From NCBI GenBank assembly GCA_963706795.1, contig OY970170.1:690001-722000 (forward strand): 32,000 bases of DNA, in the 5' to 3' direction. Below are positions 5,109 through 29,635 of the stretch, in pieces; positions within the stretch are counted from its first letter, which is position 1, and the number at the start of each line of letters is the position of its first letter. The notes beneath the pieces are model-generated. The model did no database searches. It had not been told where the DNA came from and saw only the letters and a program-made list of their open reading frames with translations. Both the position numbers and the translations under genes were made by a program. The DNA is from Candidatus Saccharimonadota bacterium. Lineage in GTDB: Bacteria; Patescibacteriota; Gracilibacteria; BD1-5; UBA2023.

Positions 5109-5220
5109 GACTATAAAAAAAAGAGCTAAAAGTTTGCGCTACGACATATCATAAAAAAAAACAGCAATAGATCAAGCAGGGTTATTTGCGCAGAAGGAAT
5201 GTCTGTGATAGCATGCCAGT

Positions 5221-6405: not shown

Positions 6406-6506
6406 ATCTTGAGCAGACCATGTTCCTCCTTCGTGTAAAGGTAAAAGCCCTGTCCATCTTTGCCTTTCGACGCTTCACTTGCTAGAATAGAACCAATACA
6501 ATCCAT

Positions 6507-8456: not shown

Positions 8457-8606
8457 GAGATTTTCGTAAAACGCGATCTTTGCGCTCAGGCTTTACGTTT
8501 CCTCGTTCAACGTACAGTCGTACGTCTCACTCCGGTACGCAGTCTTCGCACAAATCTCATCGTTTTTCGAGAAATCTCGGCACACTTGTTCGATATATTT
8601 GTTGTT

Positions 8607-9197: not shown

Positions 9198-9229
9198 AAT
9201 AATCCCTCAGGAATTCCTGAGGGATTATT
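9198..9229. terminator. Bidirectional intrinsic terminator between convergent hydrolase gene and argS
   Basis: The sequence aataatccctcagg-aatt-cctgagggattatt is a perfect palindrome. It is flanked by an A-run and a T-run. Confidence 0.75.
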
Positions 9230-10999
9230 TTACATCTCACTTGGCATGTCGATTGCGAGTATTTCGAATGCTTTTTTGAGTGTTTCTGCGGTTTTCTCTA
9301 CGAGCGAGAGTCGGAAGGCACGAAGCGCTTCGTTTGATTCTTCGAGAAGTTTTGGTGTGTGAACGTAAAAAGTACTGAATGTCGTCGCGAGTTCGTAGGC
9401 GTAGATCGCGAGGAGGTGAGGTTTATATTTTTCGGTTACTGCACGCACGCTCTCTTCAAATCGAGCGAGCTTTAAGAGAAGGAGGCGATCAAATTCGCTT
9501 GTTTCGACATCTGCGAGAGTATCCCATTTGATTCCTGCTTCTTGTGCTTTTGCGAGAACTTTGGTAGCGCGAACATAGGCGTACTGGATGTATGGACCAG
9601 AGTGACCTTCAAAATTGAGAGCTTTATCCCAGTCGAAGGTGATGTCCTTTTCGCGGTCTTGCATGAGATAGGAGTACTTGATAGCCCCTACTGCAATAGC
9701 TTGGATATCAGTGTCCTTGAGATTTGAGCCCTTGGATTCGATAATGGCTTTGGTGCGATCAAATCATTCATCTAAAAGCTTGTCGAGGAAGATCACTGTA
9801 CCATGTCGTGTCGACATTGCTCCTTCCTTGAGCCTGATGTATCCGTTAAAAGCATGGAAGAGTTCGACGCCTTCGGTGAGCTCTGGCCATGCCATATGTG
9901 CAATAGCAAAAGCCTGGCGCATATGAAGTTGTTGGCGAATGTCGATACAATAGATGAGTTTCGATGGATTCCATCCGTTTGTGAGGCGGTATTTGATAGC
10001 GGCAAGATCCGATGTCAGATAGAGACCGGTTCCATCCTTTTTTTGAAGTACACATGATGGAATTTTGGATTCTTCCGAAAATACTACTCCGACTGAGCCA
10101 TCCTCATTCTGTGTGGCGATGCCCTTCTCGACGAGTTCTCGAACGATGGACTTCATGTCGAATTCTAATTCGGGGTAGTCCTCATTATTTGGCCGAGGAA
10201 GCCCCATTCCTTCATAAAAACTCTCTCCTATATTGTAGGTCGCCTGAACATTCAGGACCCTGAGCTGGATCTCAATTGCCTGGATGGATATCTCAGTAAA
10301 CCATTTCCAAAGGTGCACTGACTCTGTGTTTCATTCCGCAAGGAGTCGGAATTCGAGCCTGCAGGCTTCATCGATTACTCCAGAAGTGTCTTCGTCAATG
10401 AGTTTCGTTGCTTTTTGGTAGAGCTCAACGAGGTAATATGAACCTCGTTCTGTGATCTGTAGGTCACTCTCTGTCTGCGTTGCGCAGACTGCATTATTTT
10501 TATATGCCCAGAGAATCTTACCAAAGACGCCCCCCCAATCACCAAAATGTGAGTCTCCAATGACTTCGTATCCAAGATAATCGTGTGCATTTATCAGTGC
10601 CTGACCGATACAAGGAGTACAAATATGGGCGATATGGAGCGGTTTTCCAGCATTTGCGCCTATATAGTCCACCACCATAGTCTCGCCATTTGGCTTCATA
10701 GCCTCTGTGCTAAGCTTCTCAAGAAGCTTACGGGTGAGTTCTTCGCCAAGTTTTACGTTTACATATCCACCCATTCCCTGGGCAGATATAAATCGTGGAT
10801 CGGCAGCAATTACTGCCGCGAGCTTTGTCGAAATAGCATTTGGTGCCTCGCGGAGAGTTTTTGACAGTCCGAAGATATTGATAGCGACATCGCCTAACTC
10901 AGCCTTGGGAGGCTGATCAAACGAAAGCGATGTTGTGTCGATTTGGTCTCCAAAGGAGTTTTTCACAATATCTTGTAGTATGTCTCTCAAAATGTGCAT
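9230..10999 (-). CDS. argS: Arginine--tRNA ligase
   Basis: Fragments 10331..10999, 9764..10318 and 9230..9664 share one frame. They are joined across TGA 10331-10333 and 9764-9766, and the gaps I hand-translated contain no TAA/TAG. A HIGH-like motif (PLHIAHI) and an MSTR motif (GAMSTRHG) are present. The DALR anticodon-binding C-terminus ends in ...PSEM. Confidence 0.95.
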
Positions 11000-11572
11000 A
11001 TGTTGTCTAAAAATGGCGAAAAAAGATTGGTGCTATAGTATCGATTTTGGCTTACTGATCAAGAGTAATTAGAATTATTTTTTTGATCATCCCTGTCGAA
11101 ATTGGCATGTTTTTGAATAAAAACATATAAATTATCTCATAAGAAATATAGATTGTTCACTTCTCTCTATAGAGAGAAGAACTCAGTATAGAATTTATTC
11201 TTTAACATATATCTATGAATGTACAAGATCTGGATAGTCGCACGCTTTCGAGAAGTGCGCTACTATACATATGTACCTGAAGCAGGAAGCAAATATCTTC
11301 TCTCTTCAGAGCTCATTAAGAAAGCCTCACTCTCCCAGAACGGTAATCGGATTGTCACCCGAGAGCCTCCACTCAAATAAATATAAACACGTCTTGCGAT
11401 ATAAACACCAATAGACCTACCAATAGGAAAGAGATGGTATCCTGCAGCTTTTACTAAAAGAGCCCCAAAAAGCCCTATTTTTTTTAAAAAGATTCAGAAT
11501 AACCTCTCTTTCCAACAAAAATAACAAAAAGTCGGAAAGGTAAATATGCCGAGTTACAAATTTTTCCCCAAG

Positions 11573-11757
11573 GTGGAGTGAGCCAGTGTAATTACACTGT
11601 AGAGCCTGACAAGCTCAATCATACTACTTGGTTTCTCCACTTTATCAGGGGTTTCGACCCCTCTTCGGATGAGATTAAGAGCATAAGTTGGTATCGGTCC
11701 GCCTACCAAGGCTAACGATAACCAGAACAAACCTCGCTTCGGCGAGGTCTTTTTTTT
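11573..11757 (+). ncRNA. Unassigned structured RNA candidate ending in an intrinsic terminator
   Basis: No credible ORF lies between 11000 and 11841. The plus strand shows nested helices: gtggag (11573-11578) pairs with ctccac (11635-11640), enclosing the perfect palindrome cagtgtaattacactg (11584-11599). Further hairpins are aggggtttcgacccct (11647-11662) and ggtatcg...cgataacc. A GC-rich terminator follows. The 5' boundary and the family are unknown. Confidence 0.25.
11731..11757 (+). terminator. Intrinsic terminator
   Basis: The stem-loop acctcgc-ttcg-gcgaggt (UUCG tetraloop) is followed by a run of eight T. Confidence 0.6.
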
Positions 11758-11762
11758 CTTAA

Positions 11763-11787
11763 AAATCTCCAAAAAGGGGATTTTTTT
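11763..11787 (+). terminator. Second, weaker tandem terminator-like hairpin
   Basis: The hairpin aaatctcc-aaaaa-ggggattt contains one G-U pair and is followed by a T-run. It lies about 55 nt upstream of the methylthiotransferase start. Confidence 0.4.
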
Positions 11788-11841
11788 GACCATATGCTCG
11801 ATCTTTACAGAACACTAAGTTTTTTTATACTCTGTGCTCTT

Positions 11842-13182
11842 ATGAAAACTAAAATCTTCGGGTGCAAGACAAATAAATATTTCTCAGAAAAATGGGAATC
11901 ACATCCCTCCATGCAAGGAGCTCAGGGGATTTTTGTAGCGTCGTGTGTGGTTACGGATCAAGCAAAGGCTAAGTGGGTAAAATTCGTTAAGCGATCCATA
12001 GTCTGACTCTGATCGGGCGAAAAGATTTATCTCACAGGATGTGGGTCGATTCGTGGAGGGAAGATCGATGAGGCATTTTATGAGCAATATAGCGAACTCG
12101 CTCCGTATAAAGATCAGATAGTGCTTCTCTGAGAAGATCCGGAGGATGTTGATGCACGCAAAAATATTCCCACGACTAAAGTGGATATGGCATCCAAGAT
12201 CGCCGCATTCAAGCTTAAAGCGACCAATGAGAAGCTCTATACGCGTAAGCATCTCGTTATCCAGACTGGTTGTGACAATTTTTGTACATTTTGTCTCACT
12301 CTTCAGGCTCGTGGGCGTCACAAGAGTAGGGATATTGACTCGATTCTCGATGAAATCCGCGAATATGAGGCGGGTGGCGGCAAAGAAGTCGTGCTCACTG
12401 GAACAAATCTTTGAGCATGGTGAGCTGCAAGTTCCAACGACTTTAAGGCTTCTAAGCTTATTGATCTCATTGATCGCATCCTCACTGAGACAACATTGCC
12501 TCGTCTCCGAATCTCAAGTCTGGGTGTAGAATTTGTTTCGGATGAGCTTCTAGCGCGTTTTGCTCTCAAGCGGATTCATGCCTACGCACACCTCTCGGTG
12601 CAGTCTGGATCAGACAAAATACTCAAAGCGATGAATCGTCACTATGACCGTCCGTGGCTCCTGGATCGCCTCCAAAAACTCGTACATCTCAAAAGAGAAG
12701 ATAGTGTTGGGATCCAGATTGGTGCGGATTTGATCGTAGGTTTTCCGGATGAGAACGAGGCTGATTTTGCTGATACGCTCTCGCTTGTCCGACAATTTGG
12801 AGTGACTCAACTCCATGCATTTCCATTTTCGGCACATGTCGACAAATACCATGTGCCGGCCTGAGTTTTCCCAAATCAGGTAGAGGAACGTACAAAACTT
12901 GATCGACTTGATCTTTTACTTCAGGAATGAGATATCTCAAAAGATACCTTCCTCCGATTAAATCATGGTAAGCGCTTTGCGGTTCTTCTTGAAGGAAAGC
13001 CAAGTTCGACTGTGTTTAAGGGTTGGAGTGAGAACTACATTGCCTGCAGCGAAGAGAATTTTATACCTGATGCAGGCTCAAAATTTGTTCGAGGTGAAAT
13101 CATCTATGGTGCCTATCAGTACCACGCTCTGCCAAAAAGAAGTGAATGAACTTTGCAAAATTTGGCCGATGAAATAGAATAG
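11842..13182 (+). CDS. Radical-SAM methylthiotransferase, MiaB/MtaB/RimO family (MtaB-like tRNA modification enzyme)
   Basis: ATG 11842 is in frame with fragments 12181..12414 and 12496..12864. I hand-translated to TAG 13180-13182 and found eight in-frame TGA and no TAA/TAG. The N-terminal MTTase domain has GCKTN...ASCVVT...LTGCG. The radical-SAM cluster is CDNFCTFC. Other motifs are LTGTNL-[TGA]-AW-[TGA], HLSVQSGS and a TRAM-like C-terminus. Confidence 0.85.
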
Positions 13183-13206
13183 GCAGTTATTTTTTAAGAA
13201 AACAAT

Positions 13207-13521
13207 ATGACAGTTTTACATACAACGGACGCAACATTTGCAAATGATACATCAACAGGACTGGTTCTCGTGGATTTTTGGGCTGAATGGTGTGGGCCAT
13301 GCAAGATCATGCTTCCTCGCCTCGACGAGCTCGCTGACAAGATGGGTGAAAAGGCAAAGATCATGAAGATCGATGTTGATGAAAACAACGATACAGCTGG
13401 TCAATTCGGGATCATGTCTATTCCAACTATGATTCTCTTCAAGGATGGTCAGATGGTAGAAAAAGTCACTGGAACCCGCGAAACTGCTGATCTTGAAGCT
13501 ATGATCGCAAAACACGCATAA
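13207..13521 (+). CDS. trxA: Thioredoxin
   Basis: This is an intact 104-aa ORF with the WCGPC active site (DFWAEWCGPCK) and the cis-Pro region SIPT. It contains no TGA. Confidence 0.97.
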   Translation: MTVLHTTDATFANDTSTGLVLVDFWAEWCGPCKIMLPRLDELADKMGEKAKIMKIDVDENNDTAGQFGIMSIPTMILFKDGQMVEKVTGTRETADLEAMIAKHA

Positions 13522-13544
13522 TACGAGTTTGCCAATATTTAAAA

Positions 13545-13570
13545 AATACTGCGAAAGCAGTATTTTTTTT
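13545..13570 (+). terminator. Intrinsic terminator after trxA
   Basis: The stem-loop aatactgc-gaaa-gcagtatt (GNRA loop) is followed by a T-run. Confidence 0.75.
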
Positions 13571-13688
13571 ATGACGTCCTTGTATTGGAGGGGCGCGCAA
13601 GAATTTTTGACTTGTGGATCTTCTTTATATACTGTTCACGTTTCATAAGTAAGTCTTTTTTGGCGTAACAAGTGACTCAAAAACAAAT

Positions 13689-13694
13689 GGAGGT
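13689..13694 (+). promoter_or_regulatory. Canonical Shine-Dalgarno (GGAGGT), 3 nt upstream of ATG 13698
   Basis: The sequence reads aaatGGAGGTactATG. None of the other roughly 15 start sites I inspected in this window has a recognisable SD. Confidence 0.5.
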
Positions 13695-13697
13695 ACT

Positions 13698-14009
13698 ATG
13701 CGTACAATCAATGTTGTTAAAGGGAAAGAAGTCCGAGGCTTTGGGGTAGCAAATTTTACAGGGAGGATTAATATCCCAGGCCAAGGTGAAGCAGAAAGAC
13801 TGGCAGCAGAATTACAAGCCCTATCAGTGTCAGAGCAGGAATCGATTGCTCGTAGCCTGCATTTGCCACTTGCAAGACTGCTGTCATGGGCAGGGCAATC
13901 CGGTCAGAAGCCAGAAGCAGTTATAGAAGTTCCACCCAACGAAAATGAAGGGCTGTTTGCGTGATGAACTCGATTTTCTTTTCTTCTTAGTCAACTCTAC
14001 ATCATGTAG
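13698..14009 (+). CDS. Hypothetical orphan protein (88 aa if TGA stops; 103 aa under code 25)
   Basis: The ORF has an ATG with a strong SD. It ends in tandem TGA-TGA (13962-13967); under UGA=Gly the frame continues to TAG 14007-14009, inside the terminator stem. By eye it is more GC-rich than its neighbours. I recognise no family. Confidence 0.5.
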
Positions 14010-14018
14010 AGTTTTTTT
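13993..14018. terminator. Intrinsic terminator between convergent orphan ORF and cNMP-binding gene
   Basis: The hairpin aactctaca-tca-tgtagagtt is followed by a T-run on the plus strand. Confidence 0.6.
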
Positions 14019-14030
14019 GTGTGTATTTTC

Positions 14031-15152
14031 TTATGTAAGCTGCTCATTGACAGCAGTTTTTGTGGCTTCGATGTGCTGTTCGGGAGTCAGCTTTTCGTTG
14101 TTTTTGGCGATTATACTGCTGAATTCTAGAGCAATGTTTTTATAGAGAAGCACTTGTTGCTTGAGCGGAAGGGAGGCAATAAACTCTTCACTTATTTCGA
14201 GAGTGATGGATTCTGTGTCGGTCACTATCGAATTGTGATGGTACGGGACTCATGAAAGAAAGGTCATCGTTCCAAATGATCCACTGTCCCCCATTTTTGC
14301 TATTATTTTATTTGCTCGAACAATAGAGACTTCACCTCGGGCAAGTATAAAGAAATGCCTATTGTTTCAGCGTCCTTCATGGAGTGCTATTTTTCACTCC
14401 TCGATTTTTCTGACAGGGATAGATCAATCAATAACGGATCTGTGAAGGATTTCGCTATCCATTCATTTAATTGGAGGGGAAATCTTTACGAGTTTTTCAA
14501 TGATTTTTCGACAGGCATTTTGTTGCTCGGTAGGTGCTCGGGAGAGATCCACAAGTGTTCACTGGTCAATTTTGCTCTTATCGAGTATTTTCGCTCATTC
14601 TATTCCAATTTTTTTTACATGTTCCTCATTGTGAGCGGCGACAATATTTCAGAACTCACAGGCTATATTTTTATATAGGAGAATCTGTTCTCTTAAGGGG
14701 AGATGTGTTACAAATCTTTCTCCAATCTCGAGAGTTACCGCCGATGATTCGGTAATAATGGAGCTGTTGCGTGTCCCTCAAGATAAAAAAGCCATGGTCC
14801 CAAAGGAGCCATTATTTTCGAGAATTGCAATGGTCTTACCTCATCGTACTACAGCTATTCGCCCCTGAGCTAATACAAAGAAATTTGTGCAGTTTCCTTC
14901 ACCCTCGCGCATTATTACTTCTCATTTTTCTGCTCTTCGTAGTGGTACAACACGAGAAAAAATACCGTGATAGATAATTTCACTATCCATTCACTTGAGA
15001 GTAGGTGAAATCTTTACAAGTTTTTTCACGATTTCACGCACTTCTGTTTGTTGCTTTTTTGTCTGTAGCAGGTCGATTACGCTTCCGCCGTAATCTTCTA
15101 CGGTTCGTATTTCTGGAGGCACACTTTTACTTCTTGCAAGGAGGCGATGCAT
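14031..15152 (-). CDS. Tandem cyclic-nucleotide-binding (CAP-effector type) domain protein, no recognisable output domain
   Basis: I hand-translated from ATG 15150-15152 (in-frame TAA 12 nt upstream) to TAA 14031-14033. The frame covers 373 codons with 12 in-frame TGA and no TAA/TAG. It contains two paralogous cNMP-binding domains (REGEGNCTNFFVLAQGRIAVV...GSFGTMAFLSGG...VTLEI and HEGRGNNRHFFILARGEVSIV...GSFGTMTFLSG...ITLEI). The plus-strand ORFs in the track here are antisense shadows. Confidence 0.85.
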
Positions 15153-15235
15153 GAGGAGGGCTTATACTGAGAGTCAGTGTATTCTTAAATATTAATTATT
15201 TCTTAATTTTTTGATGCAATCGTATCGCAGGCAAT

Positions 15236-15263
15236 AAAAAACCCTCTTTCGAGGGATTTTTTT
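15236..15263 (-). terminator. Intrinsic terminator after the giant-gene/tsaB/bPH operon
   Basis: The hairpin ccctc-tttc-gaggg has A/T extensions, and a T-run follows on the minus strand. The stop codon of the bPH gene abuts the stem. Confidence 0.7.
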
Positions 15264-15804
15264 ATGGTGTTTTCATGCGTTCTCGGTGAGTTCCTTTGAA
15301 TTCTTGGACGATATTGAGGATGATGCGAGCATGTTCGATTGGTTCGGGCGCGAGCATCATATTGAATTCTGAGGTTTCTGAGGCAGTGCGGATGGTGACG
15401 GTTCCAAAATTCAGAAGATTTTGCATGAGTCAGCGAGCCTCTCCGTTGATTTCTTGGACTTGGTCGAGCGAACATTCACGGACGGTACGATTGAGGAACG
15501 AGAGCTGTTCGATACCGATGATACGTTCGTTCGTAACGATAAAGAAGTCGAGCTCGTTATCTACCCAGTATACGTAGATGAAGAGACTAAATACCATGAC
15601 GAATCCAATCACACTCAGGTCGATAAACGAAGTCGAAAGGAATGCTGGCATAAATGCCTTGTAGACGAGTATAGCAATCGCGAGAGCGATCATGAGACCG
15701 ATGTAGAGACCAGTATAGGCGAGAGTGATCCAATGCCTATGAAGCACATACTGCACTTCTTCTCCTGCACGGAGATTATGTATGCGAAGATCCTGTGGAA
15801 CCAT
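15262..15804 (-). CDS. bPH_2 (YdbT/YdbS-like) membrane-flanked PH-domain protein
   Basis: The gene starts at ATG 15802-15804, or possibly at TTG 15876. Two TM helices are followed by a bacterial PH-like domain (FFIVTNERIIGIEQLSF...LLNFGTVTIRTAS). ORF 15430..15876 continues across TGA 15430-15432 to TAA 15262-15264. Confidence 0.65.
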
Positions 15805-16432
15805 GGTGTTTGGTTGAGAAGGTAATATTGGGACGCTTGAGGTAAAGTGTCTCGATTCGCTTCTGAGAATGATCAAGATCTACCGACTGCACGAGCAAGC
15901 TCGTGTTCATGGGCAATTGTACACGAATTTTGCGCGCGGCAAAGTCAGGAAGTGTAACAAAGCCTGAGTACACGCCTTCGGTCACCTGTTCAATCGGCGT
16001 GAGATGCATGGCTTCTTGTGCATCTCTTTTCTCTATGCATTCAGCTTTGTTTGCCTCGAGTAACATCGGATATGTGCCGCCGCTCAATCGACAATATTCA
16101 AAGAAATCGATTGCAAAAAGTGCGGTTTTATTTGCAAGTGCGAGGGTATTTACGGTGAGACTTGCGATTCTTCAGCCTGTAAAACTGGCAGGACCATTCA
16201 CGAGGATAATATTTGAGAGGTTCTTTGTGCTCGTTTCGTGCTTCTGTAAAAAAGCTTCAATAACTTCCAAAAAGAGATCAAATTCATGTCCTTTAATATT
16301 GATGGTTTCGGTCGCAATAACGATTCGATTACGAGCATCAAAGAGCACCAGCAACCCTGGATCAGTGATGCTCTGTATGAGTAGGCTATTTGACGATGAA
16401 TTCTGCATGAATGTTATAGACGAATGAAGCAA
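15776..16432 (-). CDS. tsaB: tRNA N6-threonylcarbamoyladenosine biosynthesis protein TsaB (YeaZ)
   Basis: Fragments 16172..16432 and 15776..16087 are in the same frame and join across TGA 16172-16174. The hallmark motif is VNGPASFTG-[TGA]-RIAS (compare GPGSFTGLRIG). The start is TTG 16432 or ATG 16408, and the stop is TAA. The product is about 218 aa. Confidence 0.8.
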
Positions 16433-19400
16433 CTATAGAGTTCTTAGCATCTCGGACTTCGATGACAATGCGTCATTTATTAGTCGAATAGGTGAGGCGA
16501 TAATTTTTGTCGATTATATAGAGATTACCGTCTTGTGCGATACCGATGACTGGTTTGTGATCTGCAGTTGTGAGGTATCCACCACTTGGGAGACTTGCAG
16601 CATTTGGTCCATTACGCACAAAGGTAGTATCATCTCAGGTGATGACCGCCAGTCCTGTATTTTTGATTGCATCGATGCTGCCTGCGGATTCAATTGCTGT
16701 ATTTGGTGAGAGTCCAAATGATTCACGATAGAGCGTTGTTCCATTTTGATTTTTGAGGAAGATGCTCATTGGAGAATTCTTTGAAGCTGGTTCTACGCTC
16801 ACATTTAATCCATCAGCTTTTGGTTCAATAGTACCAGAGAATTCATCGATATTGGCGATGACTCCACTGCCTGATCGTAGTACTACTCCGTTCGCAGTAC
16901 GTAATTGTGTAACAAATCCTCAGTTTGTATCGGTCATGCTTGATCCACTTCCGATACGAGTGATGTTGCCGTTACGGTAGCGGATGAGGTCGATTGGCTC
17001 GCCATTTCGCTTCTCTCCGAGAGCTCCAGAGATGGTTGTACCGCTCTGAGATGCAATATTTGGTACTGGAGCGTAGATGATGAGCGTGAAGTTGCGGTAG
17101 CTCGTATTATTGTTTTCGTCGGTTGCCCAGATGCGTATTGGGCGATCCTCGAGCTTTTGAGATGGTCAAACAATAAAGTCGAATGGACGCTCTCATTTAT
17201 GAATAATAGCTGTCACATTATCAGAATCGCGATCATTTTCCTTGATGCCGTCGCCGTCACTGTCAGTCTTGAGATCGGAGTCGATCATGATGTCCTTGAT
17301 ACCCGAAACATCATCGACATATTGCGTCATATTGACGGTATCAGTGAGGTATACCGGCACGCGAATAGACTGTCCAATGCTGATATTTGGAGCCTCATTA
17401 TCGGCAGCAAATTGAGGAGAGAGAAGCGTAATATTAGCCTCAGTGTTGTCATCTACTCCGTTGACGCTCTTGAGTCCTGCGTAATACCAGTTGTTTTCAC
17501 GCTGGAGATTGACGTTGTAAGTGTCTGATTTTGGTCCGATTGATTGGTATTCGTACGAAGTCGCACCATTCATTTCGAGTTGTGCACCATTAAAGTAGGC
17601 AAGATCGAGGCGTGCAGCTGGCAGATCAATATCGATCTTGGTGCCAGGAAGCACCGGTTGTCACTTGAGATCTGAGAGATTTATCTTGATGGTACTTGGA
17701 GCAATGCTTGGGAGGAGGATATTTCCGTTGATCACCTCGATATTCATCGTTGTGAGGAATTCAACTTCGCTGTTTTCTGGAAGCTCGAGGATACCGCCGC
17801 TTCCGCTATTATCGGATGGAACATACTTGATACGAGCTCACCCAGCATCGGTAAAGATTGTGCGATTGCCTCCGACTTCGATGAATTGTCACCTCGTAAG
17901 TGTGCGGATCAATGGTGTGGTCATCGTCACTTCTCATCGTCCAGAAGTATAGAATGCCTTTTGAGCACGTAGTACTAATCCTGGCTTTTCGGCGTCGATC
18001 ACCGTCTCATTATCGAGATCAGGGAAGAGATCGACGTATGAGCGAACTGTCTTTGGAGTCATTTGACTTGGATCTTCTCCTGCCATCATGCGATCGAAGC
18101 GATCGATGTATTCAAAGAACTCGAGACGGAACATGTCATCAGCTTCTTTGCGAGCAGGGGAGAAACTGACATTGATCTCGCTCGTATTTGTAAATCGTTC
18201 TTCGAAGTGGTTTGGTGCACTCGGTACAGTCGTATCACCGAGGAGATTATCCATGGTAAATGTATCGATCGATGATGTCACTGGTTTTGGTGGCGTCGCG
18301 TTGATTGGATATTTAATAAAGATACCATTACCAATCTGATATACGAGATCGGCTTCATTTGCCTTGATTGGATCGATTTTGAGAACTTTTTCGTCACCAG
18401 TGAGTTCGTCGGTGTAGTCGAAGAGGCGAATTTGTTTGCCATTGTCGACACCGTAGATACCACGATATTCGTAGCTTCCGACGCTTGGATCGGTATTGCC
18501 GAGATCACTTGCGAGCGTGGTGTTTGCGTCAGTTTCGCTTGCTGCAAATCTGAGATCTGCACGGCTACTGTCTGCACTGATGCGAGCAACAGATGCTCGA
18601 AGGGCAGATCATTCATTTGCGATTTCGGTGAGAGCAGGATCTGGCTGACTGAGCGCGAGGAGTGCTTTATTTGTACGCTCGTCGAATTTAGACATATCAG
18701 GAAGTGCGTCCGTTGTTTTTGTCTCTGCGGAAACGAGCGTGTGCTCACTTGGATTACCAAAGACTTCGGCGAGTGTTTTTTTGCCAGCCATAACATCAGC
18801 AATTTGTGCCTGCATGATGCGATTTTTTTCAGTTTCAGACTGGATGTAGTCCTTCGCGATTCTAAATTTTTCGGTGTTGTCTTTTTGGAGATCGGCGATG
18901 AATTTTTCTTCGGCTGCTCCGTCATAATTGAGGCCGCGTTCGAGTTCGTGCTTAATGGCATCGATTTTTGGATCTTCACCTGACTTGATTGTGAGGAGAT
19001 CTTTTTTGAGATCCTCCTTAAAGTCATCGAGCGTGAGAGATTCTTTTGCTTGACGAGCTCCTTCTGTGAGCGCAGAGCGGAAAGAATATGCGAGTGTTAC
19101 TCCAAATACACCAAGAACATCATTGGTATTCATTCCGATCTTGTTTGGCGCCACATCAATTCGCTGATTGCCTGGAGCAACTCCGCGGTAATCAAAATTG
19201 CCGATTGGCTTCACATTGCTGAGGTTGGAGAGATCTGACGTAAATCGATTGAGCGGCGTGAAGGTTGATTTTGCCATCTCAAGAAGGAAATCCACTTGGA
19301 ATTCGAGATTCACAAAGGTTGTCACCTTGATCGCGTCAATAAAACTTGTATTGAATTGTGGGTATTCGACACTAAGGAAATCGAGTCCAGGAATCTTGCC

Positions 19401-22400
19401 CTGACGCTCGGTAATCTGTGCAATCGCGTCTCCAGCACGCCATTCTGGAACGAATGGATTGGTGCGAAGAATACACATGATCTTTTTAATAATGCGCAAA
19501 ATATTGAGTGTCGCACTGATCGCACTAAAGAGTTTTGGAATCGTTGGCGGCGGTGGTAACTCCGGAAGTGTGATACTTGGTAGACTTGGTGGTGTCGGCA
19601 AATCAGGGAGATTTGGAAGTCGTGGAAGCTGTGGAATACTCGGGAATCCAATTGCGAGCGAAGGTACGTCCGGCAAGAGGAGTTTCGGCGGTCTTGGAAG
19701 TACGATTGGAGTCGTACTAAAATGGTATTCTGGCATCAAAATGCGCAGTCCGAGACGAATATTGTGGAGATCGAGAATGATATCCGGCCATTTCGGAAAT
19801 TTGATTACCGGAATTTTCGGAATAATCGCACTAATGATCTTAAAGATAAAATACTTCGCGTCATAGCGCTCATTACGACAGACACCACATTCCGCAGAAT
19901 ACTGTGTGAAAAGATCCGGAATAATCTGCCATGATTTGAGGATGGCCTTGATCAGGATCGTGAGCTCTACCCATGCACGGAAACGCTTACCATTATTGGA
20001 AATCCAGCCTCCCATCATTTTTTCGAGGGATTCTACATTACAGAGTGCCCATGACGCGTAGCGCTCCTTCCAAGTGAGGTATTTGGAGAGTTTTTCGGGG
20101 AAGCGTTTGTAGTCTTGGATAGTTCGGATATTTGACTCGATTGAGCTGATGAGACCTTGGGATTCAAGGATGAGCTTTTGATCAGCTCCGTCCTTCGTAC
20201 CGAGTTTGCTCCATTTTGCTGTTTTTGAGTCGAGTTCTGCGCGTGCATTTTTAGCGGCAGCAGTCCATTCTTTTTCGGCCTTGGTGAGATCTTCTTCGCT
20301 GATGATTGGCACAGTGATATCAAGCGTAGAATTCTCAAATTTGAGCATCGGCAATCGCGAGAGGAACTCATATGCGGCCTTTACTCCTGACACGGTTCGT
20401 CCTGCAGTATTGAGAGTTCCTGCGCTATTTTGAAGTGCCGAATTTGCACTCGATTTTATATCACCAATTACCTTTTTATCGCTCGTTCCTACTGAGAAAT
20501 CTCGGTCTTTGTAGCCGCTCGTTCCTGCAGAATACGCAGCGTCGATCTTGTTCGTAAATCCGCTCCATCCGCTCTCAAATACGCCTCGCATATCTGGGAG
20601 AATGATATAGAGCGTTGGGAGACTTGTGAGTTTGTTGACGACTTCTTCGAGCTGACGATTGACCCAATCCATAATAAAGTCAGGGAAGGCAGAGATTCGA
20701 CTGTGCGAGATCTTTACGATCGAGCCAAGGCTAAAATTACGAAGCGCAGCAACATCGATTGAAACATCAAAATCTTTATTTCCATTTGCTCGTGATCCGC
20801 CGAGTCCGATTCCAATGAGTGGGTTTCGTGGGATTCCGAGGCCACCACCCTTTGATGCGTTTTCGTTGATGTGGGCAGCAAGGCTAGAGTTCCCATTTAG
20901 GTAGTCACGAATCAGTGAATTGTTCTCATTGTTTACAGTTGCAGTCGCCGTGCTTTTGCGACATGCACCAGCATTAATAAATCCATCTCCTGAGCTTGCG
21001 GCTCCGCCAAGAGAGGCAGCATTTCCATCTGAACCATCGTCTTTACAACCAAGAAGTGGCGCAGCAGCGACGATACAATTTCCGCCTGGAATCAGTGGTG
21101 AAAGTCCAGGTGGTGGGAAGAATCCGCCAGCGACATTATTTCCAAAACATGCGGCAGTTCCGACTGCACCCGTGATTGTTGGAGTGACAAAAAGTCGGAA
21201 TGGTCCAGGTGCGAATCCAAAGATTCCTCCAGCTCCGAGCGCACATGGGGGCCAAGCTCCTGGATGCGTGCCACACCAAGTGACTGCCGAGTAGGCCGGC
21301 AATCCCGTAAATGGAGTCATAGGCCCAAGTGGTATTCCAAAAGCGACCGGTGCAGAACCTGGTGCGAGTGGTGCCCAGTTGAGAGGAAGCGAGAGACAAC
21401 TTCCTCCCCCAAATCCACAGCCGAGTCATCGGACAATTGTATCGATACCGTTATTGATGGCGTCGACATTGGATTTTGAAAGTCCTGATACATCGATCGT
21501 TCCATCGCCATTCGCAATCAAAAATGGATTACCTGCTGTGTCATGTGTATCAGGAAGTCCGATATTTTGCTTCCTGATATCTACGTTTTTTGCTGCGAGT
21601 ACAAAGTGATTGAAGGTTGCCTTCGTGAGGATCTTCCAACCAAGTCCAAATGTTCCCTGATTGTCAGTCCACTGAGGCTTGCTCGTCTCATTAAATTGGA
21701 TCGAACAATCGACAGATTGGCCGTCTGCACCTGTTTTTTTAGCGGATGCATAGAGTTTAAAATTCCCAGCGCTGTCATTCACGTCGGCTTCGTTTATGGT
21801 TTGTTGCCAGCCAGTGAGACGAATATCCGAAGTTGTGTAACCATCGCCTCCACACTGTGCATAGCCCGTTCCAGTCGCCACACCGATTCCAAAAAGCTTG
21901 TCGCCACTCTTATATCCGTTTTTGAGTTCAGTGGTTGCAAGTACAGGAATATCGCCGGATTCGGATACAGAATTTTGCTGAATATATCCCTTCTTTGAAT
22001 CTGTAATAATACGTCCAATCTCAACATTACCAGCAGAGATTGAACCCGAAGTATCGCGTGCTTCTCTAAATACGAGAATACCGTCCTTGGTTGGATCCCA
22101 GAGATTTCCACCAATACTGTAATTGTCTCCGTCTCCTGAGAGGACATCTATATAGTCCGGCTGACCATTATGATTGAAGTCCGTATATCGCCCCTGAAGT
22201 CCGCCCGTAGGATCAGACGAATTAGTTCATTCTTTGACTGTACGAGTGTAGCTTCGAGGACGTGGATCGACGGTTTTCCAGAGGACTTCTGCTTCGCCAC
22301 AGAGGCCGTTGGCATTCATGGCGACATCTCCAAATTGGTCATCTGACTCTAGAAGTCCGACTCTAAATTTACCGAATGCAAGGGCATTTGCATTCATCTC

Positions 22401-25400
22401 ATAGGTGATTTTGATGGTTTCTTTTGGTCCAATATCAAAACCTCCGAATTGCAGATCAAATGGTCCATCTAAAACATCCGAAAGCGCCCCAGAAAATACC
22501 TGACCAGCACCATTCGTACGAGTATAACGAGGCGTGTCTGTTTTGCTAAATACTCCAGAATCATTCGAATCAAGATAGCTGACATTTCGGAGTCTGTCTG
22601 TCCCTGAGTTCGTGAGTGAGACAGTGATTTCTACGCGATCACCCGATTGAAGCGTACCGCCATTCTTGTCTTTATAGGTTTTGGAGGCGATGATATTTTT
22701 GGCATCGAGGAATTCAGATCTGAGATAGGTCTTGGTTTCTTCGATGGTATTATTGCTCAGTGCATCGGTATTTACTGCGTCATTTGCCGCTTTATCTGAG
22801 ATATCGGCGATACCGCTTTTGATTTTTTCGATGAGCGCAGTGTTTGGGTTTCCAGGATTTTCTGGATCATCGCCAACTCATGCCTTTAGGCGAATAGTAG
22901 CAGCTGCCTGACTTGAGACTGCTCGTGAAGTCTTGGCAACGTAGTAGAGTTTGCTGTCGAGTAGACGCTTCTGATCCGTTGCAGAGAGCGCGCTGCTGGT
23001 TGAGTTGTCAGTCGTGCTCGGGTTTTGACCAAGTGCAAGTGACTCGTTGTAATAGTCGGTCTGATCAGGGCTCTGCACTTCTGGAAGTCCGTCCCAATGC
23101 ATGGCACCACCTTCGTTCATAGCTTCGCTTGTGAGCTTGAGCCCGAGGTCAGTTGCGAGTACTTTTTTAGTAAACTTTGTCCCAGAAGCATCCGATCCTC
23201 CGTACAAAATCGAGAGCTCGCCTGAGTCATCGGTAATAACGATATCATCTGCACCGTCCTTATCCATATCAAAGGTTTCGAGCTGCATGATGCCGCCTTT
23301 TATGACTGCTGGATTGCCGGATTCATCAAAGATGCGTGGTACTGTTCGTGAAAATTTTCCCTTGTTGTTGTCGAGAATGATGAGCTTGCCCTTCTTATCG
23401 ACCATCACGATATCCGTGTAGCCATCGTGCGCGAAATCACCCGTTCATTTGCGACTCTTACCAGCATCGGCAACATAGGCGAGATAACCAACGCTCTTGA
23501 TAGTTCCACTATAGTTTTGGAGAAGCTCGACGCGACCATCATCATAAAATACAACGATATCAGGATATCCGTCGCCATTCGTGTCGATCTGAGAATATGA
23601 TTCGATGATACCTTCTGCGCTTTCGGTGAGTTTTTGACCAATGGTGCGATCATATTTCGTCTTCCCGTTTTCAATGCGTGGAAGCTGGGCGACAGGATCA
23701 CCGAGATTGATCATGCTGTAGGTGGCAGCAAATTTCGTTGCTTCGCCTACTGAGGCTCCGGCTGCGAATTCGAGGAGACTAGTCGATCCATTTCCAAATC
23801 AGATTCCTTGTTTTGTGCGGTATTCCTCGAGACCGGTTTTTGTCGCGCTTCCGACCATTTTTTGATTAACGGAAGTCGTGGCATCTTCGATTTCGTAGAG
23901 TGTGATTCCGCGAGGTCATTTCGAAGAATTCCCAAGGCTATTTGAGCTTGTGCGGTAGCGACTTGAGATTTTTTCGAGGACGAGGGTGCCAGGATTGGCA
24001 GCGACGACATTATTTACTTGGTCAGGATCAGCAACTTCGACATGATTTGCATTCCATTTCATGGCGAGATATCCGATCTTGGTTGTACCAGAGAGGATAG
24101 TAAATCCGAGAATATTTTTGGTCTGATCTTTGTCGTATTCGACAGTGACAGATGGATATTTGCTCACATTTCCAGTTGGATCGATCTCAAATACTTTGGT
24201 ACCACCAACTTCGAGAGCGAGAGTTCGCCCCTTCGTTACTTTGCTCTGACCAAGGGCTTTGAGGAGCACAAATCTGTCATTGGCTGTAGACTCGCAATTT
24301 GAGAGCGTCTCGGAACCATCCGCATCACATGGCACGAGAGGTGTGTCATTTTGGAGATTTAAGTGGATGCGAGCGACATTTTCGCGTAAGAATGGATCGT
24401 AGACTGAGATCGACGAATGCCCATTCGCACTCTCGAGTTCCATTCTCGCAAGCGAACTCGAATCCCCCTGAGCCGTGAGTTTCCCACCTGGCGTGAGTGA
24501 CAGGATCGAGTGCTTTTCAGAGGCATCGTTGAGTGTACTCGTCACCGCAAGCGATCTGCTATCTGGCGCAAAGAGGATTTCTCCAGCGAGATAATTAGGA
24601 ACCGTGACATTACCATAATCCGCACCCAAGAGTGTCGTATAGAGCGCGTTGTAATTGGTATTCTGAAGCTTTTCCTTATTCCACAAATAATATGTATCAA
24701 CGAAGGCGACGTTATTCGAATATCCGTGAATCGTGAGGTTGGCGCCAGATTTGTCAGTAACCGTAAAACTATTGTTCTCGAGTCATGGTGCCACCTTTAC
24801 GCCGTAATAGAGCGTTCATGGCATACGTGAAACGAGCAGATCCGTTCGTGCGATTCCATCTTTAAAATCTACAGTATCCGCACCGAGACGACCAAACTGT
24901 TTGGCGCTGTCAGGTATGAAGAATGTAGCCTTCACTCCCGAAGCGTGGTTGTAGGCGACATTACCATATCGGTCGAAGAGCTTGGCAGTCGCGGTTGTTT
25001 TTACTCAGACGCGTGCCTCGAGCGATGTCTGATCAGCCGAAAGACCAACTCGCATCGCCACATCAGGAAGGACGGTTACAGTATTTGATTCGATATCTTT
25101 GATCCCTGGGATTTGGATATCGAGGGCGAGATTTTTGGCAGCGAGATATTTTGGAGTGAGCGTGATCTTGTCAGTATTTACTCCATTTTTGATCGAAACA
25201 AAATTGGTCGAGAGCACCCCAGAATTCTTTGGAAAATCGAGCGAAGCCACTCCAGAAAATCCATCAATGAGCGCACCATTTTTGTCGACTACCTTAATAT
25301 GCACTTCGTGTGGATCTTTACCTGCAACGATCGTATCACTGCTATCTACATCCACATGGATCTTGGCATAATCCACCGAAGTCAGTTTGATGCTCGTCTC

Positions 25401-28400
25401 GAGATTGCTTCCGTCGAGTGCGATCTTGATAGTCTCGGTTTCACCTCCATTATTTGAAGTCAGATCAAAGCTCGAAAATCCATCCACCGTCGTCTTTTGG
25501 ATTTTGGTATCTTTGTTATCAAGGAAGTATGCACCGCCCGACAGTGTGCCATTGAGCTTGAGGAAATTTCCCTTTGCAATGTTATTAAATTGGTCGATTG
25601 CACGTACGAGAACCGTATCTTTTTGTCATCGCACAAATACGCTCGAGCTCGCAATAGCATCGAGCCGAATTGGTTTTGCAGGAAGTACTGTAAATGTCTT
25701 GTCAGCAAATCGGTCTGAGCTGTCAGTAAATTCAAATCGGTAATTGCCAGCGCGCGTGAGCAGTGGTCCTTTGTAGCTAAAACTACTCGAAGTAATTTTT
25801 ATTGGTCCTTCTACTCGTGTGTTATCGACATCATCATAGATATTGAGTTCGATCGGGAAACTCATATTCATGAGATCGCCATTTGCCTTTTTGGTTGTGA
25901 GTGCAAATTCGAGCGAGTCTGCGTTACCTGCAGTGATTGTGGACTCCACTGATTTCACTCCATTTTTCTGGCTATTGGATGCGATATCGAGTGATTCGGA
26001 TCGAACTTCGAGTGTGAGTTCGTTGGAGGTTTTTGTGAATGCGACAGCATTATTTTTGTCCTTTGGCGCGACGGTTGCATCGAGGATCACATCGACATCT
26101 ACGTTTTTTGCCTGGATGGTGTATTCGGCAACGCCCATTTCGGCACGTACGCTGATCGGCGTAAAGTTGATATATTTTTGAAGGGTTTCAATCTTTGAGC
26201 TATCACCGCTTCCATTACGAGCATAGACGATACTGCTCTTGCCTCATTGATAAGCAACGACGCGCTTTACATCGAATGAGACTTCGTTAAACGAATCATT
26301 CGCGAGAACCTTGTCATCTTTTTTGAAGGTTGCCCTGATCGGAGTGCTTGCGTTGTATGCAAGACGTTTGTGGTCTGCAGAAAGATCGATATTCCCGTCT
26401 TTGATCCATTCATATCCGTCGATAATTCCGTTATTATTCGCATCAACTTGCCAGTCAGGAATACCGTCCTTATTCGCATCAACTGCCGTAAAGAAATCTC
26501 GATCCTTCGCTCTATTATTGGCCGGTGCAACGCCACAAGAACCTGCTCCAATTGTTGGAGGAAGTATTGATCCAAGCCAACAAAATACTGCAGGAAGCCA
26601 TTGCCAAATAGGAACTCCTTCTGGTGGTCCACACTTAAAGACGGCTTTGTTTTCATTGAAATCTCCCACATTGGCTCCGTCGAGGAGATTTTGGAGAGTA
26701 TTTGCTTCGTTCTGAATATCGCTGATTTCTGGTGGCAGAATACCCTTGGCAGCAGGATCTATTTTCAGGAAGAGATTTTGTGCATCACCCGATCCAGCAA
26801 TATATGCCATTTCATAGTCCGACTTGTGACCAGGAAGCGGATAACTCGAATTTCCATCTCGATCAAGTCCATGCTCGAGCACAAATGCGTATTTTGAAGT
26901 CGCATTCCTGAGATTATACCAAAGCACTGAGTCAACAATGCTGTTCATAGCGACTTCATTCGAAGTCAGAACATTATAGAGATCAACCTTAGCAGCTGGG
27001 TATTCTCCGGATTTTAAGAGATCATAGACAGCTTTTTTCTCTGCCGTAAGACTCGCGGGACTTTCGCTCGTGATGAGAGCATTAATCTCGACACTTTTTG
27101 CATCAAGCTCGGCTTTGATTCGTGCTTTGACCTTGTCAGTAGTGAGATCGACTCATTCTGGCCAAGTCAGGCGATAAAAATTTGGAAACTCGATTTTGAC
27201 GATATTTCCCTTTGGCGAAATAAAATCGATATAGCGATTTTTGTCTGCTGCAAGTGACGGCGTTGCAAAATTTTTGAGTGCTGCGCCGTATTCCTCGTCC
27301 GTAGGTGAGATGTGCTCAATCCAAGAAGGAATCTTTTTAAAATCTCGTGATTCGTGGACTGTGCTGTCTATTGGACCATTTTCTCAGGTGCTGGCACATG
27401 ATGAACCATAACTCTTCACGCCAGTTCCGCCGAGTTTGATATCGGTGATCGTACAAGACTTTGGTGATTTTCCTAAGATTGCGGTCTCAAAATCAAGAAC
27501 ATCACCGAGTTCTTTGTGGCCATTTGCGGACTCACCAGTTCATTTCATTGCACAGACAAATCGCGTCCCTTTGCTAGCGTCTGGGTAGTAGTATGTCGTG
27601 CTGCGTGATCCCACATCAACATCCGTTGCAGAATACGGATCCGCCAAAAAGTTTGTCTTGAGACAATCCGCTGGCGATGCAATCTGAAGCGCGCCTCCTG
27701 GAGTGATTTCCTTGCTTCCACCGAGATCAAATGTAGGCGAAATATATCCAGAATACTTGTTGTTTTTAAGGCTGAGTTCTGTAGAGATCTTATCTTTGTA
27801 TTTTGCGAGATTTTCGGGTGTTGCGTTTTTGGTGATGTCGGCAATATCTGCCGCCGAGAGACTATTCGTCTTGAGATTGAGTGGTGAATTTCCTCCCCAA
27901 GTGTCCAGTGTATATGCACTTCCATCAGCCGCAAAGCAGGCTCCTCAACCGAGTCCGACAAATGGTGTGACATTTGGATTGCTCAGTGCGTCGAGATCCT
28001 TCTGTACATTTTGCACGTTATATCCACGATTCGCCTCTACTGGAAGCGTCGATCCTCGGACAATGCTACAATCTCCCGCGGTTTCGAGACTGTCTGCGCG
28101 ACGTCCGAAGAGATAGTTGCTATAGCTTTTTGGCTCTGTGCTAAAAAGAGGCATACCGTCTGGTCCGACGAGTCCGCCAGTTTTTGTATATGTGGTTGGT
28201 ACGGCAATATCTCGCGAGAGACCATTTTGGACGATCTGGGTGATTTCGGATTCAAAGATGCTATTCGTATCTTTGATCGACTTCTTCATAAATTCGTCCT
28301 GCTTGGATATCAGGACAGGTGCGACATCGGCTCTTACATTTGTGCCATCTCCGTAGCGCCCAGTGTTATAGACAAACTTGAGGATGTCACCGAGATATTT

Positions 28401-29435
28401 CGCATTAAAGACTTCGAGGAATTGCTTTACGGATTTATCAATTGCTGCCTTTGTTTGGACATCTGGCGCATTCGAAAAATCGATAGAATCCTTGCCAAGT
28501 GATCATGCAAGTGCTGCGACTGCAGGATCATCTATCGCACTGATTCCAGTATCTTGGAAACTCTGATAGCTGTCATAGAGCGTCTTTGCGAGATGCTTAT
28601 TAAAGCGGTTGTAGGCGATATCTTCGAGATTTTCGAGATAGAGACCGTAGGCTTTCCAATTGGCGAGGCTCGTGGATTCTTGGTCGTGATACGCATCGAG
28701 ATAAAAAATCGAAGGCTCGCTCAGCGAAGAGCTAAAAGCCCCTTCGCGATTATAAAAATCATGTGTCTTATCGAGGAATTGCCCGAGACGCTGCTTGTCC
28801 TGATCATGAGAACCTGTATTTGGCATGATTACTCCGTGCCAAATCTCTGGGGTATCTTTGATATTTGCAGTCTTTGAGACCTCGTAATATCCATCCTCGG
28901 GACTGTATTCGAATACTTTGTCATCAAAATCCGTGTACGGATAAATGCTCAAAAAACTATCCGTCCCGCTATGCACAACTGGCAAAGGAAGTGCCCCTAT
29001 AAGTACCGTTCCTACCAGTCTCGAAATCCCATTGCCGTCACCCTGATAAAACAGTTTTTCGTTCAGTGCTGCGATATTATGCGGAGAAACATTGTCCGGA
29101 ACCTCTACAATGAGTACTCGAGTATTGCCGAGTGCATTTTGGATATCGTTCGCATAACGCTTGATCTTGGATTTGATATCGCCCGAATTTGTATCCGAAC
29201 TCACAATGATCGAAACAAGGTTTGGTGCCTCGCTTCATGCCGCCTGAGTCAACGGAATCATCGGAAACTGGACTGTTTGGACGAAAAATATCGAAAAAAT
29301 CAGAAATCCCGACAGGAATTTCTTGAATGGAATCTTGGAAGCCTTTAAAAACATGGTTCTTCGAGTATGGATGCGAACTTTGGGACTTTTGGCGCATACT
29401 ATCATTTTCGATGTCATTTGCAAAGTTTTCACCAT
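16386..29435 (-). CDS. Giant signal-anchored surface/secreted multidomain protein (about 4,349 aa), adhesin-like
   Basis: Thirteen track fragments are all in one frame: 29235..29459, 28503..29204, 27945..28289, 26244..26948, 25626..26138, 25005..25487, 23916..24686, 23445..23714, 22878..23408, 21426..21881, 18609..21320, 17934..18281 and 17193..17654. I hand-translated every gap and the 3' extension to 16386. They contain 27 TGA, no TAA/TAG, and protein-like sequence throughout. An in-frame TAA lies upstream at 29472-29474, and the stop is TAG 16386-16388. The N-terminus has a hydrophobic anchor (FKKFLSGFLIFSIFFVQTV). The start is ambiguous: ATG 29435, 29405 or 29354. Confidence 0.9.
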
Positions 29436-29559: not shown

Positions 29560-29635
29560 GGGTTCGTAGCTCAGTAGGTAGAGCAGGGCCCTTTTAAGGC
29601 CAAGGTCGCGGGTTCGAGCCCCGCCGAACCCACCA
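29560..29635 (+). tRNA. tRNA-Lys (anticodon UUU), CCA encoded
   Basis: I folded the cloverleaf by hand. The acceptor stem GGGTTCG/CGAACCC is perfect. The D-stem is GCTC/GAGC. The anticodon loop is CT-TTT-AA on a 4-bp stem with one mismatch. The T-arm is GCGGG-TTCGAGC-CCCGC. The discriminator is A, followed by CCA. Confidence 0.95.

Follow-up and report, generated by a model that had tools for sequence, protein, structure and literature searches.

Does a 13-kb stretch that public gene calls break into pieces encode one giant protein, and if so, what would such a protein do? The question is raised by a locus of Candidatus Saccharimonadota bacterium (GTDB lineage Bacteria; Patescibacteriota; Gracilibacteria; BD1-5; UBA2023), on contig OY970170.1 of assembly GCA_963706795.1. 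We analysed positions 690,001 to 722,000 of its forward strand; these 32,000 nucleotides (nt) are called the window hereafter, and all positions are counted from its first letter. Judged from its sequence, the reverse strand from 29435 (more likely 29354) to 16386 is one functional gene of a Gracilibacteria genome that uses genetic code 25, in which TGA stands for glycine. We find it reasonably probable that its product is the main subunit of a conserved, Sec-exported surface or contact apparatus of fixed geometry, and not a variable adhesin.

A single gene read in genetic code 25

The reverse complement of 16386..29435 is an open reading frame (ORF) of 13,050 nt that opens with ATG, runs through 4,349 sense codons and closes with TAG (16386-16388). 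Inside it there are 27 in-frame TGA, no TAA and no internal TAG; the nearest in-frame stop upstream is a TAA at 29474. The other five frames contain 17-126 TAA and TAG. Computed from the regional base composition, the probability that 4,349 codons remain free of both triplets is about 1e-72. If TGA is taken as a stop, the ORF falls into 28 pieces, 14 of them with at least 100 codons, and public gene calls made with code 11 split it into a dozen or more, the largest of which (P0001) has 903 amino acids (aa). An earlier note on this DNA had described a single gene of ~13 kb, invisible under the standard code, with 27 TGA and neither TAA nor TAG in a frame too long for chance. The reading of 29435..16386 with table 25 bears out these counts. 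The peptides quoted in that note are all present, at or a few bases from where it placed them: DANKDG... at 26406-26480, three FG-GAP-like strings at 23196-23576, GDRVEITV... at 22569-22643 and DSDGDG at 17220-17282.

The frame is also open in other genomes. In more than 50 species whose gene lies fully inside a contig, a colinear frame bounded by TAA or TAG extends over 3,940-4,566 codons and includes 2-297 in-frame TGA, a number that rises as the GC content falls (range 20-59%). The positions of TGA vary from species to species and the frame nevertheless remains open, a pattern that only selection for one product can explain. Standard-code relatives serve as a natural control, encoding the same family with 0 in-frame TGA. 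Positions 9203-22804 of the window recur without a single base difference in a separate Logan assembly (run ERR12037365). Promoter-like and terminator-like sites occur within the gene at chance level, as compared with shuffled sequence.

What TGA encodes was read by aligning the window protein to 53 complete orthologues, each from a different species. In the columns that contain TGA, 42% of the other sequences carry Gly, against a background of 4.7%, and 0.2% carry Trp. The orthologue L002 is 44% identical to the window protein over its full length and is encoded by one closed ORF of 4,362 codons with 9 TGA. In this pair, 13 of the 27 window TGA stand opposite Gly, as do 5 of the 9 TGA of L002, and none stands opposite Trp. 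The two TGA of the neighbouring ArgRS gene align to Gly and Ala of the E. coli ArgRS. Ten neighbouring genes read with TGA as Gly have intact Pfam domains, which continue across TGA in CHASE2 and cyclase, FecR, SpoIIE, TraG-type ATPase, radical SAM, two cNMP-binding, bPH_2, TsaD-like and hydrolase domains. Only TAA and TAG terminate genes, and the neighbours, ArgRS included, need TGA as a sense codon, as code 25 implies. By these alignments, the organism uses code 25, and code 4, selenocysteine insertion and readthrough are excluded.

The share of TGA among Gly codons ranges from 0 to 41% across the genes of the window. It is about 25% in two hydrolase genes and in the radical SAM gene, and 5-9% in the giant gene (7%), ArgRS (5%) and TsaB (9%). 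The gene of a double cNMP-binding protein (14034-15152, reverse strand) has 12 TGA to 17 GGN, with a GC content of only 0.41. In public collections the family is mostly mistranslated: the gene of the window is present there only as code-11 fragments, and many full-length Logan entries have Trp where the DNA has TGA, as gene calling with table 4 would yield. For example, a consensus 'VWESTK' faces 'VGEATK' in the window (P0001, P0014-P0159; alignments A7, A8). Because the public entries are fragments or carry Trp for Gly, analyses at the level of the family need retranslation with table 25.

A colinear family with housekeeping-like divergence

When one genome per GTDB species was scanned, 133 genomes proved to contain relatives of the giant gene, and 80 loci were returned. 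All 80 come from Gracilibacteria, 'Peribacteria' or Patescibacteria metagenome-assembled genomes (MAGs), and the complete genomes CP042461.1, CP060226.1 and OY782392.1 are among them. The closest locus is 77% identical over the core query, and the closest relative, L003, is 71% identical over the full length. A profile search of 1.84 billion cluster representatives gave 638 members, 338 of them at E<=1e-30 and many with 3,900-5,860 aa. In each genome retrieved, the family was found at one locus.

Homology is colinear over the full length and includes the motifs KYLTWKERYA, CxVCRNERYD, FPKWPDIxLDLHNIR and NPFVPEWRAGDxIAQITERQG. Segment lengths are nearly constant in the 53 species, whose GC contents span 20-59%. 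The core has 521 aa in the window protein, with a median of 527 and a standard deviation (SD) of 17.5; the block aa 3650-4010 has 361 aa against 371 (SD 10). Between the genomes of the window and L003, the giant proteins are 71% identical, ArgRS 73%, the radical SAM proteins 79%, bPH_2 77%, TsaB 67% and the cNMP-binding proteins 46%. Across the class-level clade, members of the family share 25-45% identity. By these comparisons of sequence, the gene behaves as a vertically inherited core gene, not as a fast-evolving island adhesin, and the family is colinear across Gracilibacteria and reaches standard-code relatives of Peregrinibacteria type.

Members are deposited as 'hypothetical protein' (Gracilibacteria, MDD2487531.1), as 'S-layer homology domain-containing protein' (Peregrinibacteria MBI2464194.1; a Gracilibacteria-labelled MAG) or, for some in IMG, as 'uncharacterized repeat protein (TIGR01451 family)'. 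The word 'undescribed' in the earlier note does not strictly hold for the gene as such, as orthologues such as MDD2487531.1 (4,224 aa) had already been deposited with code 25. The gene is thus not new to databases; the picture of the family, with its breadth, its constancy, a core that is a fold orphan and its operon partners, is not described. In the literature that we searched, giant surface proteins are covered in general terms only and this family is not described.

Start of the protein and export

Residues are numbered from Met1 (29435). Hydropathy marks a hydrophobic segment at aa 40-63, preceded by a basic stretch. Elsewhere in the family, 41-46 aa stand ahead of a conserved LVSIIV strand, and these N-termini have a basic n-region and, behind it, a hydrophobic core with the consensus LIFSxLF; their end is A-x-A-like. 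Because their lengths fit Met28 better than Met1, the true start is likely Met28 (ATG 29354-29352), which would give a precursor of ~4,322 aa instead of 4,349. The probable start at Met28 and the predicted Sec signal peptide (aa 28-67; 29235..29354, reverse strand) together comprise a basic n-region, the hydrophobic FLSGFLIFSIFFVQTVQF and then TQAAG|SEAP. The basic stretch, the hydrophobic signal and the export proposed in the earlier note are therefore retained, with the start moved to Met28.

Hydropathy reveals no second strong transmembrane segment in the giant protein, and the LPXTG motif is absent from its C-terminus, whose ending ...AE(F/Y)(I/V)(I/V)K is conserved through the final residue. 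Given an N-terminal Sec signal peptide, almost the whole protein would therefore lie beyond the cytoplasmic membrane, and its location is presumably extracellular.

Domain organisation

All segments described here are encoded on the reverse strand. Behind the predicted signal peptide lies a conserved N-terminal region of ~890 aa (aa 68-960; 26556..29234), for which conservation and the AlphaFold2 (AF2) model of the orthologue fragment P0164 indicate an alpha/beta subdomain, helical and beta parts, and many invariant polar and aromatic residues. A low-charge Trp/Cys-rich segment (aa 937-971) is followed by an acidic DxDxDG-like loop, DANKDGIPDWQVDANNNGIIDGYEW (aa 986-1010; 26406..26627 for the two together). 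In an orthologue this loop gives a weak match to EF-hand_5 (E 0.48).

Next comes a run of probable Ig-like beta-sandwiches with D-x-(F/Y)-G-N signatures (aa ~1011-1560; 24756..26405), recognised from matches in homologues and from the orthologue model. Invasin_D3, Big_1 and Glyco_hydro2_C5 match homologues at equivalent positions, and the window protein itself has no Pfam match there. A conserved region without a family, bearing the motif LYTTLLGADYG in the alignment, occupies aa 1561-1900 (23736..24755).

Three recognisable FG-GAP/VCBS-like repeats follow (aa 1937-2080; 23196..23627). FG-GAP_3 (PF13517) matches the window protein in three stretches over aa 1937-2067 with E 5.3e-11 and 43.4 bits, above the gathering cutoff of 26.9. 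It is the only Pfam family that reaches significance on the whole window protein, and the NCBIfam search of the whole protein gave no match. Behind these repeats lies a candidate DUF11/CARDB-like beta-sandwich (aa 2250-2400; 22236..22688), proposed from matches at the equivalent position in homologues: just after FG-GAP, DUF11 (E 1.4e-5) and DUF7507 match P0128 and P0103, and no profile matches the window protein there. It precedes a clade-specific insertion of ~170 aa (aa ~2440-2600; 21636..22118; alignment occupancy 0.12-0.21), restricted to the window, L003, L005, L008, L009, L016 and L020.

The segment aa 2670-2797 (21045..21428) is highly conserved and almost uncharged, its 128 aa including a single charged residue, 35% Gly and Pro, and 7 Cys. 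The best-conserved part of the protein is the core (aa 2900-3420; 19176..20738), with 60-73% column identity. It contains long helical hairpins, a CxxC motif (ECGVCRNERYD), the FPKWPDIxLDLHNIR beta hairpins, NPFVPEWRAGDxIAQITERQG, and a poly-proline tract of 58 residues (aa 3246-3303; 19527-19700). A helical, variable part (aa 3420-3650) leads to the beta-rich C-terminal region (aa 3650-4349; 16389..18488), which carries a DSDGDG motif at 17220-17282 and the conserved C-terminal end.

In 11 full-length homologues, Pfam recognised FG-GAP in 10, Glyco_hydro2_C5 in six, SLH in five, TSP3_bac in four (near the C-termini), Invasin_D3 in three and DUF11 in one. The window protein has no SLH (PF00395) match at E<1 and no RTX match in Pfam. 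Its acidic DxDxDG motifs have no match to profiles of TSP3 or EF-hand type at E<1. No tandem repeats were detected in the DNA of the gene and no internal repeats in the protein.

Most domain calls of the earlier note thus find support, at least through homologues. The FG-GAP/VCBS repeats are secured in the window protein itself. The Ig-like domains are supported indirectly, by homologues and the orthologue model, and the DUF11/CARDB-like segment by DUF11 in one homologue, neither having a profile match in the window protein. Of the two calcium-binding-like acidic repeats, the motif strings are present and the Pfam support is confined to TSP3_bac in homologues; the motifs may stiffen the chain by binding Ca2+.

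Modules without assignable family

The core was modelled with AF2 on P0001, a TGA-free piece that corresponds to window aa 2706-3608, using 47 aligned sequences. The mean predicted local distance difference test (pLDDT) score is 63.9, and it lies between 70 and 93 over window aa ~3015-3335. This confident part is predicted to consist of a beta hairpin, three long helices in hairpins, two more beta hairpins, the extended poly-proline tract and a further helix; the Gly/Pro/Cys segment has low confidence. Foldseek with the core model found nothing below E 0.7 in PDB and BFVD, and sequence and profile searches of PDB with the core gave no match. The central core as a whole (aa ~2650-3420) has no match in Pfam, NCBIfam or PDB sequences.

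For the N-terminal region, AF2 was run on P0164, a 1,161-aa fragment of a 65%-identical orthologue (pLDDT 66). The model begins with an alpha/beta subdomain. Foldseek matches in PDB are Ig-like only and come from its last ~180 residues (aa 966-1143; E ~1e-4). The N-terminal ~900 aa have no match in Pfam, NCBIfam or PDB sequences, and Pfam on 11 N-terminal fragments was uninformative. The first alpha/beta subdomain has an H-G motif after a strand and an Asp in the place of Cys; a pseudo-protease of clan CD (caspase/gingipain-like) was considered and is not claimed. At L084, the giant gene is directly preceded by a separate gene of 822 aa (7495-9963, forward strand), which resembles the giant N-terminal region, with 34% identity to the window protein. 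This gene suggests that the N-terminal region is an autonomous module, which may have been split off or duplicated.

In all, ~85% of the protein is therefore without an assignable family.

The locus in standard-code relatives

We examined seven standard-code loci (L083-L087, L089 and L090). In all seven, four closely spaced genes follow the giant gene on the same strand, with products of ~200, 230, 500-700 and 350-450 aa (dn1 to dn4). In L083-L087, all four downstream proteins are mutually homologous between loci (22-40% identity) and have signal peptides; none has a Pfam family. Profile searches confirmed dn2 and dn3 in both L089 and L090 and dn1 in L089 only. They did not detect dn4 in either, where its presence would follow from position and size. 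Homologues thus number seven of seven for dn2 and dn3, six for dn1 and five for dn4.

Five of the seven loci have, ahead of the giant gene, two unknown genes and those of T2SSE (PilB), T2SSF (PilC) and a T2SSG-like prepilin. This same-strand cluster could be the operon of an uncharacterised envelope apparatus. A link to a type IV filament in the organism of the window would be an extrapolation from these relatives.

Possible roles of the giant protein

Our favoured reading, in which the protein is the principal subunit of a surface or contact apparatus with fixed geometry, can be put in structural terms. The Ig-like, FG-GAP, DUF11-like and acidic Ca-binding-like modules would make up a rigid extracellular scaffold, on which three conserved novel modules would be displayed: the N-terminal ~900 aa, the almost uncharged Gly/Pro/Cys segment, and the helical core with its poly-proline tract. 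In relatives, C-terminal SLH domains would fix the giant protein to the cell wall, and its gene stands together with those of the four secreted partners, usually beside the genes of a type IV filament in its minimal form (PilB, PilC, pilin). The scaffold role, as well as any role in contact with a host or prey, is what we infer from this architecture.

Several points weigh against this reading. For the gene of the window, location, expression and function are without direct support. Domains of adhesion type, such as FG-GAP, Ig-like and DUF11, suit plain adhesion equally well. The SLH domain seen by Pfam in five of 11 homologues is missing from the window protein. PilB, PilC and homologues of the four partners are absent from the 32-kb window and from 10 kb on either side in the 80 Gracilibacteria loci, and the operon argument therefore comes from the sister lineage only. 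Even there, the independence of the seven standard-code loci is limited, as they share a wider synteny (UvrA, PrsW, HTH_17). Finally, with mean pLDDT values of 64-66, the lack of a known fold could partly reflect the quality of the models.

A classical giant adhesin specific for a host or prey, that is, a long surface fibre holding the binding specificity of the episymbiont, is a possible though unlikely explanation. Adhesins typically contain modules of the FG-GAP/VCBS, Ig-like and DUF11-like kinds along with acidic Ca-binding-like motifs, and the giant membrane proteins of Vampirococcus and related taxa have been read in this way (PMC8080830, PMC13059738). Moreover, a VCBS-annotated protein of WB Gracilibacteria 25_16 (the genome of L066), a candidate orthologue only, is present in a metaproteome (PMC11452946); genome 25_26 of that data set corresponds to L025. 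Against this, 53 species between 20 and 59% GC share one architecture with constant segment lengths, and there are no tandem or internal repeats. Divergence resembles that of a housekeeping gene, 71% identity to L003 being close to the 73% of ArgRS. The best-conserved parts are the novel core modules, not a variable tip, and the sole variable block is the one clade-specific insertion, whereas a protein adapted to diverse hosts would be expected to show more variation. Being non-repetitive, near-constant in domain length and housekeeping-like in divergence, the protein is a poor fit with a fast-evolving, host-specific adhesin. The host-interaction role proposed in the earlier note is, for now, one that we can only infer; the data bring it closer to a conserved apparatus and further from a variable adhesin.

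A bolder extension of the favoured reading is quite unlikely, in our estimate. The family could be the core subunit of an unrecognised, lineage-defining envelope apparatus of Gracilibacteria and Peregrinibacteria that contacts or breaches the envelopes of host or prey cells, to which the standard-code branch would add four secreted partners and a minimal, dedicated motor for type IV filaments. The parts that engage membrane or wall would then be the Gly/Pro/Cys segment and the helical hairpins of the core, comparable to the hydrophobic regions that serve large translocating toxins in delivery.

We regard it as very unlikely that the giant protein forms an S-layer, or serves as the chief wall-anchored structural lattice or spacer of the envelope, without direct host contact. 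Many homologues have SLH domains, and some bear the NCBI name 'S-layer homology domain-containing protein'. One locus per retrieved genome, seemingly vertical inheritance, surroundings of housekeeping type (TsaB, SerRS, ribosomal proteins) and constant geometry would also suit such a role. However, SLH is lacking in the window protein and in Gracilibacteria orthologues alike, and a 470-kDa, non-repetitive, multi-module chain is unlike the known lattice-forming S-layer proteins. Rapid divergence is usual for S-layer proteins; in this family, identity remains at 25-45% throughout a class-level clade.

Hardly credible, lastly, is a row of smaller genes, a decayed pseudogene, or TGA read as Trp (code 4), as selenocysteine or by readthrough: the fragments of public gene callers and the W at TGA positions of some database entries speak for it, but the long open frame (chance ~1e-72), its full-length colinearity in more than 50 species with TGA at differing positions and counts, the TGA-free encoding in standard-code relatives, the alignment of TGA with Gly (42%) instead of Trp (0.2%), and internal promoter-like and terminator-like sites no commoner than in shuffled sequence all speak against it.

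Gracilibacteria and related bacteria live as episymbionts or predators and have been cultured barely or not at all. The giant gene takes up ~1% of a genome of ~1.27 Mb, is colinear and of near-constant size in at least 133 species, and encodes a protein ~85% of which, its most conserved core included, is without known family or fold. This makes it a tangible candidate, open to experiment, for an envelope or contact structure that is central to the entire clade, and the standard-code operon supplies partner proteins with which to test it.

Genomic neighbourhood

The gene immediately downstream of the giant gene in the window is TsaB-like (15776..16408, reverse strand), and its start overlaps the 3' end of the giant gene by ~23 nt. 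The same order occurs in ~21-25 loci, with a median distance of -4 nt, and the two genes are probably co-transcribed. Further downstream, a small membrane protein with the bacterial PH domain bPH_2 (PF03703) is encoded at 15262..15804 on the reverse strand; it is found downstream in 23 loci. In other species, SerRS or ribosomal protein genes are located near the giant gene. The sole RNA gene found in the window is tRNA-Lys(UUU) (29560-29635, forward strand), 125 nt upstream of the giant gene and on the opposite strand.

Between 4644 and 8456, the window encodes SSB (4644-5138, reverse strand), a SpoIIE-type phosphatase (5212-6405, forward) and a TraG/VirB4-type P-loop ATPase (6486-8456, forward), whose Walker A motif includes a Gly encoded by TGA. 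One other locus only, L016, has an 85%-identical ATPase in the vicinity of the giant gene. A link between the ATPase of the window and the giant gene was considered and rejected, as the two are 8 kb apart, are separated by unrelated genes and are neighbours in that one other locus.

The intergenic region between ArgRS and the radical SAM gene (11033-11793) has the lowest GC content of the central window (0.377 for 11001-12000), with no Rfam match and no convincing ORF. At the left edge (1-3191, reverse strand) there is a CHASE2-domain adenylate/guanylate cyclase, cut by the edge of the window, and then a protein with a FecR domain. These genes and that of the double cNMP-binding protein (14034-15152) point to cyclic-nucleotide signalling in this genome.

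Comparison with known systems

The adhesins LapA, SiiE, MpIBP and those of the RTX type, which depend on type I secretion, are very large extracellular proteins with Ig-like beta-sandwich modules and Ca2+-binding acidic motifs. Such giant adhesins of Gram-negative bacteria consist of many near-identical tandem repeats and carry a C-terminal RTX/T1SS signal. The window protein shares with them its large size, probable Ig-like modules and acidic motifs; in contrast to them, it has no internal repeats and no RTX match, and it has an N-terminal Sec signal.

With integrin-alpha-like FG-GAP/VCBS proteins (PF13517, PF01839), the window protein has in common three Ca-binding-like repeats above the Pfam threshold. 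In contrast, these make up ~3% of its length, and three repeats are recognised where a full beta-propeller would have seven blades. Type IV filament clusters (PilB-PilC-pilin) adjoin the giant gene in five of the seven standard-code loci and in neither the window nor the 80 Gracilibacteria loci.

The giant proteins of nanohaloarchaea (PMC10266531) and the giant genes of Omnitrophota (bioRxiv 10.1101/2023.11.21.568195) likewise represent a large investment in secreted protein by host-dependent organisms with reduced genomes. No sequence relationship to them was found and their domain content is different; the window family is far more uniform in length and order.

Closer counterparts come from related lineages, whose giant surface proteins have been treated generically as attachment factors (PMC8080830, PMC13059738, PMC4736985, PMC6851277). 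The 4,163-aa protein VAMP_16_20 of Vampirococcus lugosii, listed as 'hypothetical protein' (PMC8080830, Supplementary Table 1) and inferred there to be in the membrane or at the surface, is a possible orthologue, the agreement being in size and lineage only. MDD2487531.1 of Candidatus Gracilibacteria (4,224 aa; P0014), an uncharacterised protein of a code-25 lineage, matches the window protein in length class and in its colinear architecture.

The SLH giants of Peregrinibacteria type, such as MBI2464194.1 (4,699 aa), are homologous to the window protein over its whole length, through the N-terminal region, the Ig-like, FG-GAP and DUF11 domains, the Gly/Pro/Cys segment, the poly-proline core and the C-terminal beta region. 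They differ from it in using the standard code with 0 TGA, in their length of 4,100-5,860 aa, in additional C-terminal SLH and TSP3 repeats, and in being encoded with operon partners.

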